Source: an uncultured Gemmatimonadaceae bacterium (GTDB lineage: Bacteria; Gemmatimonadota; Gemmatimonadetes; Gemmatimonadales; Gemmatimonadaceae). Taken from it: a stretch of DNA of 64,000 nt. The first letter of the stretch is position 1; each line of letters opens with the position of its first letter. Made by a program: the position numbers. Below, piece by piece: positions 38,301 through 46,008 of this stretch. The stretch lies in the NCBI GenBank assembly GCA_963751275.1, contig CAVVTZ010000007.1, forward strand, positions 416,001 to 480,000. Direction: 5' to 3'.

Positions 38301-41300
38301 ATCGCGTGGCCGGTGTCGCTCACGAACGTCATGGGGAACTTGGCATCGTGCGCCCAGCTCGCGAGCGTGGTGTCCGCATCGACGGAGATGCCGAGGACGA
38401 CGACGCCGTTGCCGTTGTTGAAGAGCGTGGCGTACTGATCACGGTACGCCTCCATTTGGATCGTTCAGCCCTTGGTCCGCGCCTTGAAGAAGAAGGCTAG
38501 CACGACGGTCTTCCCCTTGTACGTTGCGAGGCTCACCGAGGGGATGAGGCCGGACATGTTCGCGCCGGGCGCCGTGAAGTTCGGGGCGACGGATCCGGTG
38601 TCGACTATGGATGCCGTGGGCGCGGCCTGCGCGATGGCCGATGATATCGGAGCAGTGACGAGTACCGCTGCCGCGATGAGCCGGACGATTCTCATGGGAC
38701 CTCCACTAGGGGTAACGCCCTAAGGTACGCGCTAACGCCGTATAGCGGAACCGTTCGCGGGGTCCGGGTCTGAAACGAACTGCTTTTGACAGGATGAACA
38801 GGATAACTGCTGATGAACGACATGAGGCGGCCCCGCCTCATGTCGTTCATCAGCAGTTATCCTGTTCATCCTGTCAAAGCAGTTCGCTTCAATACTTGAA
38901 CGCCACCTTGATGCTGCCTTCCCCGCGTTTATCCATCGCGGTCGCGAGGGCCGCCCGATATTCGCCGAGCGGGAAGGTATGCGTCAGCAACGGGCGGACG
39001 TTGGCCTTCCCTGTGGAGATCAGCATCGCCGCTTCGTGGAAATCATCCGGATCCGCGGCACCATGCCCGTGTGACCCGTGGAACACCGAGCCGCGCACCG
39101 ACAGCTCCTTCACCCAGAGCGGCGTCCAGTCGAGTCCCTTCATCGTGCTCGAGTTGCCGAGCAGAACGATCGTGCCGCCGGCGGTGGTGAAGCGCATGGC
39201 GTCGTCCATGCCGCGGGCGCCGCTCACGCAGACGAACGTCAGGTCGAAGCCGCCGATGCCGATCGGTTTGCCGAGGATCGGCTGCAACAGTTTGGTGCCC
39301 GCGACGTCGGCGAGGGTCTTGAGATAATTCCCCTTCGCCTTCACGACGTTCGCGGCGCCGAAGCGCGTCGCGTGCTCGCCCTGGAAGTCGTAGCGCGCGA
39401 GCACGGTCACGCGCGCGGCGGGCGCGAGGGCGCGAATGGCCGCAGTCGCGAGCAGTCCGATGGAACCCGCGCCGATCACCAGCACGCGCGCGCCGGGCGC
39501 GGGAAGGTTCGAGCGCACCGCGCGCACCGAGCACGAGAAGGGCTCGATGAGCACGGCCAGCTCGTCGGGCATGCCGTCGGCCAGCTTCAGCAGGTGCGAC
39601 TCGTGCGCGACGAACTGCTCGCCCCACCCGCCGCCGAGACCGCGCGTGGTGCCGATGAGCACGCCGGCCGGCAGCGGGCCGGTCGTGAAATTCACGCAGC
39701 GCCCGTGCTGTCCGTCCGCGCACGCCGCGCACACCGGCGCGATGCCGCGCGACTCGCAGCAGAGCAGGGGGTTCGCGGCCACGCGGTCGCCGGCCTTCAC
39801 CGCGGTCACCGCGGCTCCGCACTCGATCACCTCGCCCACCAGCTCGTGGCCGAGCACGAAGGGGAAGCTCGAGAACGGTGAGTTCGAAGGGCTCGCGCCG
39901 AGCGTGACGACGTTGATGTCGCTGCCGCAGATGCCGCCCATCCGCGTGCGCAGGCGCACCCACTTGTCGGTCGGCAGCGCCGGCGCCTCGACGTCGCCGT
40001 ACGTCGTGCAGGCGTGCGGCCCCACGTAGAAGCGATCGCTCAGCTTGCCCGCGGCGAGCGTGGCGAGATAGGTCGGGATCGGCGCCGCGAACGAGATCGC
40101 TTTCACGCCGGCGCGCTCCCCTTGGGCGGCACCACGAGGCGCAGCGCCCGCGGCACGGTCGTGATCTCGAGCACCGCACTCTTCGCGCGGTTGTACTCGC
40201 CGTCGGTCTCGTACGCGGGCGGTTCCGTGAAGCGCAGCGTGAAGGACGCCGACTGTTCGGCGTCCACGCTCGCGTGCGTCATGTGCGTGCCCTTGCCCAC
40301 CGCGCCGAAGAGATTCGCGCGCTGGATGGGCGACGCGTCGTGGATCGCGATCAGGTCGAGCTTGCCGTCGGCGAGATCCGCTTTGGGTGCGATCACGAAC
40401 GTGCCGCCGAAATACTTCGCGTTCGCGACGATCACCATGAGATGCTGCTTCATGCCGCGCGGCTTGGCTGGGCTCGCGATATCCACCATGAGCCCTTTGT
40501 AGCTCAGCAGCTGCTTGAGCGCCGAGTACTTGTAGAGGAGATAGCCGCGCAGCCACCAGATGCTCTCGATGTCCTCGAGCACGGCGATATCGAAGCCGAA
40601 GCCGGTGATGTTCAGGAAATACTTGTCCTCGATCCGGCCGACGTCGATCAGCGTGTCGGGGCCGTGCACCGCCAACCGCGCCATCTGTTCGATGTCGGCG
40701 GCCGGGATGTCCAGCGATTTCGCGAAGTCGTTGCCGGTGCCCGCCGCCACGATCGCGAGGCGGCAGGTGCTCTTCGCCGCGACGAGCGCGTTGGCGATGT
40801 TGCTCCACGTGCCGTCGCCGCCGCAGCCGACGATCGTCGTGGCGCCCTCGCGCAGGGCCTGGGCCGCGAGTTCGCGTTCCTGGCCCGGCGAGGTGGTGAA
40901 TCGGATGTCGGTGACGCCGACGTCGGCGAACGCGCGGTGTATGTGCTCCGCCGTCTTCGCACCCCGCCCCCTTCCGGAGGCGGGGTTGACGATGACGGTG
41001 ACCTTCTCACTCATCGCTTCGCGTAGCTCGCGAGCGTCTGGAGCGGGTGGAAGGTCTGGAGGCCGTTCTTCATCCACAACTCACGGAAGGGCTTGAAGTC
41101 CACGTCCCAATCCGCGAGCAGGTCGGTCATCGCCTGCGAATGGATCGTGATGCCGCCGCGCTCCTCTTCGTTCTCGCTGAACTGGCTCGCCATGATGATC
41201 GTGGAGGTGTACGCGCCCTCCTCGTCGTTCATGAACGCCTGGTAGCGGTGCTCCACGTTCGACCACTCGTGCTCGGTGATCGTCATGTCGACGATCGGCT

Positions 41301-44300: not shown

Positions 44301-46008
44301 ACCGGCACGCCAGCCCAACGGCATTCCGTGCTCGGCGCGCTGGCCGCGTGCCGTGCCCGAACGTGCGAATGGGGTCTGCCGTTCCTGCCCGCCGGCTTCG
44401 ATGAAGCCGGCTACATCCGGGCGTTGCTCGCGCGTTCTTTCGAGGCGGAGATCAGGCCAGAGACCGCAGACCGGATCGATACGCTGACCGGCGCTCAACG
44501 GGACTCGCTGGCGCCGGTCTATGACGAACTGCTGCAACGTCTTGAGCATCGAAAGATAATAGAAAACCGCGGCGATGTCTACCGTCTCGTGGCGGCCGTT
44601 CCCGCGCGGGAGCGCCGCCACTGGGAGCGATATTTCCGGCGCAGCAAGCGGCGGGCAACGATGCGCTGGGGGAAATACGTACTCCTCTATGACGACTGGC
44701 TCGACTATGTCGTCCAGAAGGTGGCGCGCCGGTCTGGCACGACGGTGGAACTCACATCGCGCGAGCGCCGCTGGCCCCTCATATTCCTCTGGCCGCGCGT
44801 GTTCCGCTATCTTCGCACCCGACCCCAACGCCGTCGCTCGACATGACGCCGACCACCTACATCGCCGTATCACTCGCGTTCGCCTTCCTGCTCACGATGC
44901 CGGTGTACGCCGTCGTCGCGCGCGGGCGTCCGGTGGATGCCGAGGTGGCACGGCGGCCCACCACGCTGCTGCTGGGCGTGTGGGTGCGGGACTGGCTCAT
45001 GTGGGTGATCACGCCGGTGGAGCGCGCGCTGGTGCGCGTGAACGTGTCGCCGGACCTGCTGAACTATGGCGGCGGCGCGCTCGGACTCGCCGCCGGCGTG
45101 TCCTATTCGCAGGGCGCGATCGCGCTCGGCGGTACATTCGTGCTGCTCGGAGGGATCGCGGACGTGCTCGACGGGCGCGTGGCGCGCGCTCGCGGAGTCG
45201 GCAGCGCGTACGGCGAATTCCTCGACTCGATCATCGACCGCTTCTCGGAGATGTTCGTGTTCGTGGGCCTTGCGCTCTACTTCGAGCCGTCGCGTTGGGC
45301 GATGTTGAGTACGGTGGTCGCGCTCGGCGGCGCCATGATGGTGAGCTACTCGCGCGCGAAGGGCGCGGCGGTGGGCGTCGATTGCCGCGGCGGCGTGATG
45401 CAGCGCGCCGAGCGGCTAGTGCTCCTCGCGATCGCTTCGATGCTCGACAATCCGGTCTGCGACTACTTCGGCTGGCCCGAATCGTCGCTGCTCATCGCGG
45501 CCGTGACCCTGATCGGAGCGGCCAGCGTGGGCACCGCGGTGTGGCGGAGCTGGTCGATCGCGGCTGAACTGAAAGCGAGGAATGGCGGGGCTAAGAACTG
45601 AACGGCAAGAGGGGAAACGGGAAACGGGAAACGGGACGACCTACTTGCCCCCGTTTCCCGTTTCCCGTTTCCCCTCTTGCCGTTCAGTTCTTTACAAGAT
45701 TGCGCAGCACATACTGCAGGATCCCGCCGTTGCGGAAGTACAGCCCTTCCTCCGGCGTATCGATCCGGCAGCGGACCTTGAAATGCTTGCCGCTGCTCAC
45801 GCGCACGGTGAGGTCGGCGCGCGGCGCGAGGGAGTCGTCGAGGCCCTCGATGTCGTAGGTCTCGAAGCCGGTGAGACCGAGCGAGGTGCGCGACTCTCCC
45901 GGCATGAACTCCAGCGGCAGCACGCCCATGCCCACGAGGTTCGAGCGATGGATCCGCTCGAAGCTCTCGGCGATCACGGCGCGCACGCCGAGGAGGCGCG
46001 TGCCCTTC

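Follow-up and report, generated by a model that had tools for sequence, protein, structure and literature searches.

RESULTS

A divergent seven-gene locus

The window analyzed here is a stretch of 64,000 nucleotides from an uncultured Gemmatimonadaceae bacterium, and the locus within it (38889..45601) consists of seven ORFs in a divergent arrangement, four on the minus strand followed by three on the plus strand (Table 1). Each ORF was found at the position that the genome-wide survey's note had given, and Pfam supports six of the seven. The exception is g911, described in that note as unannotated and indeed without a match in either Pfam or NCBIfam. Neighboring genes overlap by 4 nt at all five same-strand junctions, and the spacer between g909 and the PlsC gene is so short that the promoters must presumably overlap coding DNA. 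We conclude that all seven genes are genuine and coupled in translation, and that Gemmatimonadota and Vicinamibacteria conserve them.

Table 1. Coordinates of the genes and other features of the locus in the window.
Feature	Position	Strand	Basis or candidate role
Perfect palindrome, 46-nt arms	38785..38878		3' of the left operon
Zn-dependent medium-chain dehydrogenase	38889..40106	-	PF08240/PF00107; candidate 3-keto long-chain-base reductase, swappable part
DAGK/YegS-family lipid kinase	40103..41014	-	PF00781 and PF19279; candidate sphinganine or ceramide kinase
ADC-fold protein without conserved lysine	41011..41706	-	Constant partner of g909
g909, AOS/SPT-like alpha-oxoamine synthase	41703..42983	-	Own clade, nearest serine-using SPT/PigH-type enzymes
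Head-to-head gap between g909 and PlsC gene, 28 nt	42984..43011		ORF coordinates
g910, PlsC-family acyltransferase, cluster-specific subfamily	43012..43842	+	PF01553; candidate N- (or O-) acylase of phosphorylated long-chain base
g911, Tam41/CpgC-type cytidylyltransferase	43839..44846	+	Profile homology; candidate CDP-ceramide synthase
g912, PIP-synthase-type CDP-alcohol phosphotransferase	44843..45601	+	Best PDB matches PIPS; paralogue of housekeeping PIPS
Perfect hairpin, 43-nt arms	45593..45692		Between g912 and convergent aconitase

Among 80 related loci, 36 are full length, and of these, which include kin and are therefore not independent, all encode the Tam41 and CDP-alcohol phosphotransferase proteins, 30 the kinase, 28 each the ADC-fold protein, SPT, and PlsC, and 25 the dehydrogenase. 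The conserved set reported earlier thus stands, although its content is slightly less uniform than the 29 of 29 given for five of the genes (28 to 36 of 36 loci here). The core comprises g909, the ADC-fold protein, the lipid kinase, g911, g912, and a dedicated PlsC paralogue, while the dehydrogenase is swappable. Carriers are uncultured soil and marine bacteria, and in Vicinamibacteria, the cluster forms a single co-directional operon. Six matches resembled long SPT-ADC-kinase fusions; because the three inspected contained out-of-frame stretches and the records are single, we take these to be assembly artefacts. No published description of the cluster was found in a literature search that had most subscription papers outside its reach.

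g909 is nearest to serine palmitoyltransferase

In line with the survey's assignment, the top solved relative of g909 is SPT (309 bits), ahead of KBL (247), ALAS (235), SulA (195), and AONS (188). The NCBIfam SPT models score 367, 353, and 299 bits, all below their cut-offs of 640, 500, and 670, and the tie between the BioF and SPT models, both under cut-off, was reproduced. Aligned to 3a2b, g909 keeps the PLP lysine and the catalytic His, Asp, His, and Arg of SPT (K273, H168, D239, H242, and R396), and these are invariant in 29 rows, as are S111 and Y82, the equivalents of SPT Ser81 and Asn52/Tyr. Ser111 is followed by Pro, Arg299 is also invariant, and the SPT motif GTFSKS reads GTFSKA in g909 and GTFSKS in many orthologues. 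At the position of SulA Lys281, where SPT has Ala, g909 has an invariant Cys303, and so lacks the lysine of the cysteate acyltransferase SulA. The scores below cut-off, Cys303, the Pro after Ser111, and Arg299 count against the SPT assignment. In a tree of only 16 rows, g909 forms its own clade (100/100), which groups with SPT and a PigH-like enzyme (90/88) in no settled branching order, with KBL, HemA, and BioF separate. The tree position and motifs speak against KBL, BioF, or HemA, and g909 is a candidate serine palmitoyltransferase, predicted from these comparisons to form 3-ketosphinganine from serine.

The constant partner of g909 has an ADC fold

The ADC-fold gene follows the g909 orthologue in 93 of 93 testable loci, and the two are the most conserved genes of the cluster (80-99% in most family members versus 40-77% for PlsC). 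The survey gave too little weight to this coupling. The structural model of the ADC-fold protein (pLDDT 92) matches 3bh2 at Z 22.2, and its fold matches, ADC, MppR, Sbi00515, and Swit_4259 (Z 19.5-22.2), include no acyltransferase. Sequence searches gave no match in the PDB or on plasmids, and an Atlas search returned generic ADC clusters only. Acetoacetate decarboxylases use a Schiff-base lysine. Lysine is absent from the invariant and 90% columns of the alignment of this family (41 rows), and its motif position holds His in most of 71 ORFs and Tyr or Phe in the rest; the invariant residues are E40, H43, Y63, E65, R100, E180, E182, R208, and E209. Complex prediction weakly suggests that g909 and the ADC-fold protein may associate: the pair scored 0.56 versus 0.00 for the best control, with 61% agreement of contacts and partner pLDDT of at least 86. 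Of 157 solved pairs, 116 attain this mark, as do 2 of 215 mismatched pairs, but only 18 of the solved pairs and both mismatches do so at 0.60 or under. Solo ADC paralogues occur at five loci with no lipid gene detected nearby.

A cluster-specific PlsC paralogue and the question of ceramide synthase

A profile built from cluster members detected the PlsC subfamily in 33 of 301 Gemmatimonadota genomes, namely, 33 of the 34 with both the ADC and Tam41 genes and 0 of the other 267, a co-occurrence that supports the survey's view of PlsC as the cluster's own acylase. The HX4D and EGxR motifs are kept (invariant H104, D109, R127, E182, G183, and R185), the protein aligns to 5kym (E 1e-18), and two invariant arginines fall at the positions of 5kym basic residues that presumably bind phosphate. 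The gene is lacking in 9 of 20 Vicinamibacteria loci; seven of the eight genomes behind these loci have a relative (40-52%) elsewhere among unrelated genes, for which orthology is only putative. PlsC may N-acylate the long-chain base; the known chemistry of its family is O-acylation, and we know of no PlsC-family enzyme shown to N-acylate. Two bCerS-type queries had no match in the cluster's own genome (83% complete), and genome-wide search found no bCerS in 12 of 20 cluster genomes, a set that includes five with 96-100% completeness. The remaining 8 of 20 have a bCerS relative, which counts against the proposal of a cluster without bCerS.

Dehydrogenase, kinase, and housekeeping counterparts

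The Zn-dehydrogenase, proposed earlier as a non-canonical reductase, is common in the full loci (25/36) but is not a fixed part of the cluster, as only 2 of 20 Vicinamibacteria loci have it; in 8 of the 20, an SDR gene lies directly upstream of SPT, and in one genome (G039, 99% complete), neither reductase candidate was found at the thresholds used. The kinase scores above the TIGR00147 cut-off and is present in 19 of 20 Vicinamibacteria loci. Apart from the cluster, the genome encodes two CdsA, four other PF01553 proteins, and, on contig C8, PIPS adjoining MIPS, so the cluster looks like a parallel route acting on a non-glycerol backbone. The inositol-3-phosphate synthase that the survey had cited is thus present, but with MIPS in 280 of 301 genomes of the phylum, it has no discriminating value, and we do not count it as evidence for an inositol lipid.

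g911 and g912 as a predicted head-group module

PF09139 misses both g911 and the Caulobacter control, and 9 of 23 scanned g911 relatives pass its cut-off. A 50-row profile of g911 relatives matches Schizosaccharomyces pombe Tam41 (E 2e-11) and 7ecd (6e-8), which bears out the Tam41-type assignment; G51, S52, D66, K120, and R145 are invariant in 50 rows. In Caulobacter-type sphingolipid clusters, g911 relatives lie directly after the kinase (A1 profile E 1e-16 to 1e-30), and the Roseomonas protein in the cpgC position, which, like CCNA_01219, goes by the name "putative cytosolic protein," is 27% identical to g911 (E 5e-15). Judged by sequence, g911 and the CpgC-position proteins are homologues. 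A primer-based metagenome scan for Caulobacter CpgC gave eight chance matches and no homologue, and no stored protein had the primer-derived CpgC motifs correctly placed. Caulobacter cpgC mutants retain ceramide-phosphate and lose CPG, and a Tam41 domain and an NDP-ceramide role for CpgC are already in print (PMC11324152), so the claim that the CDP-ceramide step is unreported is not supported.

For g912, the top PDB matches are PIPS, while the NCBIfam PIP synthase models score 127 and 109 bits, below their cut-offs of 180 and 170. The inositol-phosphate pocket of PIP synthase (R94, S132, Y133, R152, R155, and R195) is kept, with S132, Y133, and R155 in 113/113 and R195 in 107/107 aligned matches. 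Close g911-g912 pairs also occur with a FAR-PlsB fusion and an FAD oxidase (three loci), and others with the same dehydrogenase, the kinase, and a class II aldolase-like gene, in both cases in genomes in which the search for a g909 orthologue gave none. These pairs indicate that the head-group module can serve without ceramide, which counts against a sphingoid product. In its favor, two genomes without g909 have canonical spt-bCerS-cerR together with a Tam41-PIPS locus of the g911 type. Sequence searches of Pfam, NCBIfam, and the PDB gave no match for the aldolase-like protein, which was placed by fold search only.

DISCUSSION

The cluster probably makes an inositol sphingolipid, with the usual reactions of phospholipid synthesis applied to a sphingoid backbone and without known bCerS. 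We estimate a probability of about 45% for the following scheme, in which the substrates and order of steps are inferred: g909, assisted by the ADC-fold protein or with it as a subunit, would convert serine and a long acyl thioester to 3-ketosphinganine. The dehydrogenase, replaced by an SDR in other lineages, would reduce this to sphinganine, and the kinase would phosphorylate C1. As sphinganine-1-phosphate mimics lyso-phosphatidic acid, the PlsC paralogue could acylate its C2 amine, either directly or by 3-O-acylation and an O-to-N shift, to yield ceramide-1-phosphate. With CTP, g911 would form CDP-ceramide, to which g912 would add inositol-3-phosphate, and a phosphatase encoded elsewhere would release inositol phosphoceramide. 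The ADC-fold protein has no role of its own in this scheme, which counts against it. Of the CDP-activated inositol sphingolipid proposed by the survey, CDP activation, inositol phosphate, and a non-glycerol backbone are supported, and we infer that the product is sphingoid. That PlsC-family N-acylation, an ADC-requiring SPT, and passage through CDP-ceramide to inositol phosphoceramide amount to a third independent ceramide route is a tentative proposal.

The acyl chemistry may be apportioned otherwise. It is possible, if unlikely, that the ADC-fold protein forms the amide of a sphingoid inositol lipid, or that the nitrogen stays lyso, and that PlsC O-acylates C3, as is usual for its family. 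The invariable SPT-ADC adjacency and the higher conservation of that pair relative to PlsC fit such a division, as do a genome (G084) that has SPT-ADC-kinase but neither a Tam41 gene nor a member of the PlsC subfamily and the non-acylated phosphoglycerol sphingolipids of Pseudomonas (PMC12134224), but the lack of acyltransferases among the matched ADC-fold structures and the solo ADC paralogues away from lipid genes do not. A nitrogen-free backbone, which we also consider improbable, would account at once for why an O-acyltransferase is present, why bCerS is lacking, and why ADC is so strictly coupled: the ADC-fold protein would deaminate or rearrange the g909 aminoketone to a hydroxyketone, to be reduced to a long-chain diol or triol, and phosphorylation, O-acylation by PlsC, CDP activation, and addition of inositol phosphate would follow. 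Invariant acidic residues abound in the ADC pocket, Thermomicrobia have diol-based inositol lipids, and at one locus (L076), the aldolase-like gene takes the place of SPT-ADC-PlsC beside the same dehydrogenase (62%) and the kinase (53%). However, this chemistry lacks a tested precedent in the ADC fold, and relatives of g911 hold the CpgC position in ceramide clusters.

The locus might instead combine two unrelated jobs, with PlsC, Tam41, and g912 making ordinary glycerol PI(P) and SPT-ADC-kinase making something else. The divergent transcription of the halves, the placement of SPT-ADC at another locus in seven genomes, and the Tam41-PIPS pairs without g909 are consistent with this, but the single operon of Vicinamibacteria, the retention of the kinase and an ADC paralogue beside Tam41 when SPT moves, and the housekeeping enzymes already in the genome make it quite unlikely. 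We give very little credence to g909 as BioF or KBL and the dehydrogenase as TDH, with the lipid genes as bystanders. The BioF score does tie with SPT, TDH is among the best NCBIfam models for the dehydrogenase, and g909 is the sole full-length AOS gene found in its incomplete genome. Bona fide KBL-TDH pairs in relatives, however, lie at separate loci, the KBL 32% identical to g909 and the TDH 22-25% to the dehydrogenase (25% for a separate TDH adjoining KBL), the tree and motifs exclude KBL, BioF, and HemA, and in two phyla the genes stay linked to those for lipid synthesis.

Predictions of which bacteria make sphingolipids draw on spt, bCerS, and cerR. If the bCerS-free inositol sphingolipid route is correct, the producer map would extend to 34 of the 301 Gemmatimonadota genomes sampled and to as many as 51 of the 201 sampled from the class Vicinamibacteria, with a bearing on the origin of soil and sediment sphingolipids, and if it is a third ceramide route, surveys keyed to bCerS would miss producers in two abundant phyla. 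PlsC-family N-acylation would be new enzymology, as would an alpha-oxoamine synthase paired with an ADC-fold protein that lacks the lysine, and the g911-g912 pair offers a clean test case for CDP-ceramide, the open step of Caulobacter CPG synthesis.

The closest known system is the ceramide phosphoglycerate locus of Caulobacter crescentus, with spt, cpgB, cpgC, and cpgA (PMC9393093, PMC11324152, PMC12275187). Both have an SPT-type enzyme, a DAGK-family kinase (that of the cluster belongs to the CpgB family), a Tam41-domain protein, and a CDP-alcohol transferase, but bCerS, CerR, ACP, CpgD, and the Lpt paralogue are absent among the seven genes here, the transferase is PIPS-type rather than CpgA-type, with no BLAST match to the Roseomonas CpgA-position protein, and the PlsC paralogue, the ADC-fold partner, and the divergent g909 are extras. 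In Bacteroides thetaiotaomicron (BT_1522/1523/1525/1526), an AUR1-like enzyme moves phosphoinositol to ceramide via PI-DAG (PMC9246714). An inositol sphingolipid, predicted here, and a PIPS using inositol phosphate are common to both, whereas no AUR1-like (BT_1522-type) gene is found among the seven, and the backbone itself would be CDP-activated. With the Tam41 CDP-DAG synthases (S. pombe 6ig2/6ig4; 7ecd), g911 shares a profile match over positions 18-220 and the YGS, Asp, Lys, GR, and SY-x-x-x-R motifs; beyond that match, R276, K279, K294, and R297 are common to g911 and CpgC-position proteins, and the genome has a separate CdsA. Compared with the mycobacterial PIP synthase PgsA1 (PMC6506517), g912 shares the CDP-alcohol phosphotransferase signature and the inositol-phosphate pocket but has an extra N-terminal segment and about 34% identity to the housekeeping copy, of which it is a paralogue. 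The ADC-fold protein has the fold of the ADC-like superfamily at 10-15% identity, differing in its lack of a conserved lysine and its tie to an alpha-oxoamine synthase.

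Organization and conservation of the cluster

The seven open reading frames that the genome-wide survey's note had described were all found in place, as two divergent operons. Within these, neighboring genes overlap by 4 nt at all five junctions, and 28 nt separate g909, the serine palmitoyltransferase (SPT)-like gene, from the PlsC-family gene. Pfam assigns six of the seven, and g911, the Tam41-type cytidylyltransferase gene that the note had called unannotated, indeed has no Pfam or NCBIfam match. The host genome is 83% complete, and its closest named relatives are Gemmatimonadaceae MAGs. 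The neighboring peroxiredoxin has an in-frame TGA at the expected peroxidatic Cys site and is broken at the identical point in locus L065; this codon is probably selenocysteine. The aconitase and inositol-3-phosphate synthase (MIPS) genes are each spread over two frames, probably through assembly indels.

Coordinates of features at the cluster and in related loci
Feature	Location	Strand	Remark
Long perfect palindrome	window 38785-38878		one end of cluster
Long perfect palindrome	window 45593-45692		other end of cluster
AhpC/TSA peroxiredoxin	window 38135-38698	-	in-frame TGA
Aconitase	window 45684-48357	-	two frames
MIPS	L161:7531-9300		two frames
518-aa protein	L076:6011-7567	-	also L079 (unpublished G507)
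Canonical sphingolipid cluster	L122:7627-11926		G223

Among 36 full-length loci (of 80 related), the Tam41 and CDP-alcohol transferase (CDP-AP) genes are present in all 36, the kinase in 30, the acetoacetate decarboxylase (ADC)-fold, SPT, and PlsC genes in 28 each, and the dehydrogenase in 25. Profiles matched 40 (g911, one weakly), 36 (ADC), and 33 (PlsC subfamily) of 301 sampled phylum genomes, the PlsC subfamily occurring in 33/34 genomes with ADC and Tam41 versus 0/267 others; these tallies take in unpublished G156, G056, and G181, and counts from related genomes are non-independent. The ADC profile also matches 51/201 Vicinamibacteria genomes, where 20 loci from 19 ADC-positive genomes, chosen mostly for long contigs, have SPT, ADC, and CDP-AP in 20, kinase and Tam41 in 19, PlsC in 11, and dehydrogenase in 2. 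The cluster in these chosen loci is mostly a single co-directional operon, with a classical SDR directly upstream of SPT in 8/20, and 7/8 genomes with PlsC-less loci carry a 40-52% relative elsewhere, amid unrelated genes.

The backbone genes

As with the best Swiss-Prot hit that the note gave for g909, its top solved relative is an SPT, that of Sphingobacterium. A 16-row tree gathers the g909 orthologues in a separate clade (100/100), which lies next to canonical SPTs and an enzyme that we take to be PigH-like (90/88), apart from KBL, HemA, and BioF. The protein retains the SPT catalytic set, Tyr82, and Ser111, the equivalent of Ser81 of SPT (PMC10196870); it is without Lys281, the SulA residue used for comparison (PMC9304779), and has Cys303 at the position of an Ala in SPT. 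It probably works like an SPT and is a candidate member of that family. A pairing of g909 as KBL with TDH was rejected because the KBL-TDH pairs of relatives are distinct.

The ADC gene follows g909 in 93/93 orthologues with downstream DNA, 7 truncated loci being set aside; in seven genomes lacking SPT at the locus, the orthologue (57-60%) is found at another site, followed there by a second ADC paralogue. In a structure search with its model (pLDDT 92), the ADC-fold protein reached Z 22.2 against acetoacetate decarboxylase and 7.7 against the next non-family entry. No conserved lysine was found among aligned relatives, in which a number of Glu, His, and Arg positions do not vary. A predicted 1:1 SPT-ADC complex scored 0.56 (control, 0.00; contact agreement, 61%; partner pLDDT at least 86), a mark attained by 116/157 solved and 2/215 mismatched pairs, with only 18 solved pairs yet both mismatches at or below 0.60; this prediction weakly supports such a complex. 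Solo ADC-fold paralogues also occur (L147-L151), with cluster genes not detected nearby and three near heavy-metal ATPase-like genes.

The note had also reported the canonical ceramide synthase, bCerS, as absent. Queries of this type gave no match in the genome itself (83% complete) and matched 8/20 cluster genomes, the unmatched ones including five of 96-100% completeness. One genome carries, besides the g909 system, a canonical cluster of bCerS, glycosyltransferase, spt, cerR-like SDR, and ACP.

The head-group module

The top structural matches of g912, the CDP-AP, are PIP synthases, and the pocket residues given in PMC6506517 recur in aligned g912 hits (S132, Y133, and R155, 113/113; R152, 112/113; R195, 107/107). 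Outside the cluster, the genome carries a PIPS-MIPS pair, two CdsA, and four further PF01553 genes; the cluster thus repeats three housekeeping steps, a duplication that a second backbone would predict. MIPS, which the note had offered as support, is present but says little, because 280/301 genomes have one. The cluster PlsC, aligned to 5kym, retains HX4D, R127, and EGxR, which, in the roles that we presume for these residues, are consistent with a phosphorylated acceptor.

The g911-family profile recovers Tam41 structures, and 9/23 scanned relatives pass the PF09139 cut-off. In Caulobacter-type clusters found by a plasmid search, g911 relatives directly follow the lipid kinase (Roseomonas order: CDP-AP, kinase, g911 relative, glycosyltransferase, spt, acp), and the g911 profile detects the proteins in the CpgC position with E values of 1e-16 to 1e-30; they also have C-terminal residues in common with g911. 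Such Caulobacter-type sphingolipid genes are borne by Pseudomonas and Roseomonas plasmids (L082, L083). Mutants in cpgC retain ceramide phosphate and lose ceramide phosphoglycerate (CPG) (PMC9393093); the mechanism is termed unidentified in PMC12275187. The CDP-ceramide step, for which the note counted no papers, cannot be called new, because PMC11324152 suggests that CC_1161, with its Tam41 domain, may make NDP-activated ceramide; in the excerpts of these papers at hand, the step is a proposal and not a demonstration. Eight g911 relatives (P0128, P0136, P0137, P0139, P0164, P0233, P0153, P0166) occur in fusions with PlsC, CDP-alcohol transferase, NTP transferase, or cytochrome P450; the five that we checked, each known from a single record, may be assembly artefacts.

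The Tam41-PIPS pair is not tied to g909. In three loci (L063, L067, L077), from genomes where no g909 orthologue was found, the neighbors of the g911/g912 relatives include an SDR, an 884-aa FAR-PlsB fusion, and an FAD oxidase; this looks like an ether-lipid (alkyl-DHAP) route supplying a CDP-inositol head module. Others (L070, L072, L073, L078, L080, L162-L164) join an OleD-like SDR and a further PlsC-type gene to the pair; of their genomes, G506 and G508 have canonical spt-bCerS-cerR elsewhere, and G505 has spt at a contig end. In two further loci, a 518-aa protein replaces SPT-ADC-PlsC, and the cluster's dehydrogenase and kinase accompany Tam41-PIPS and this aldolase-like gene. The protein belongs to no known family; a fold search (E 2e-4) gives its C-terminal part a class II aldolase-like fold, and its 43 relatives include some from Dictyoglomus.

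Proposed route and alternatives

The cluster quite likely makes a CDP-activated non-glycerol lipid bearing an inositol-phosphate head. The specific route that we favor, at a probability of about 0.45, would run from 3-ketosphinganine to inositol phosphoceramide: 3-ketosphinganine would be converted to sphinganine and then sphinganine-1-phosphate, PlsC-type N-acylation would follow, and the product would become CDP-ceramide and finally inositol phosphoceramide. Against this route stand G084, with SPT-ADC-kinase only, G039, in which neither reductase candidate was found, and the independence of the Tam41-PIPS pair from g909. It also gives the ADC-fold protein no explanation, and we know of no N-acylating PlsC. 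Less likely is an arrangement in which the ADC-fold protein forms the amide and PlsC does O-acylation.

A deaminated diol or triol backbone has the same low probability. Less likely still, the two halves of the cluster do separate jobs, in favor of which the Tam41-PIPS pair does occur away from g909. That g909 is a KBL or BioF is highly improbable, given its place in the tree.

Relation to known systems

In Bacteroides, the synthesis of inositol phosphoceramide goes through an AUR1-like enzyme (PMC9246714), and Pseudomonas makes non-acylated forms (PMC12134224). Our literature search found no account of this cluster or of its backbone half. The head module is related to Caulobacter CpgB/CpgC; the apparently new part is the backbone half, with the g909 clade, its ADC partner, the PlsC paralogue, and no bCerS.
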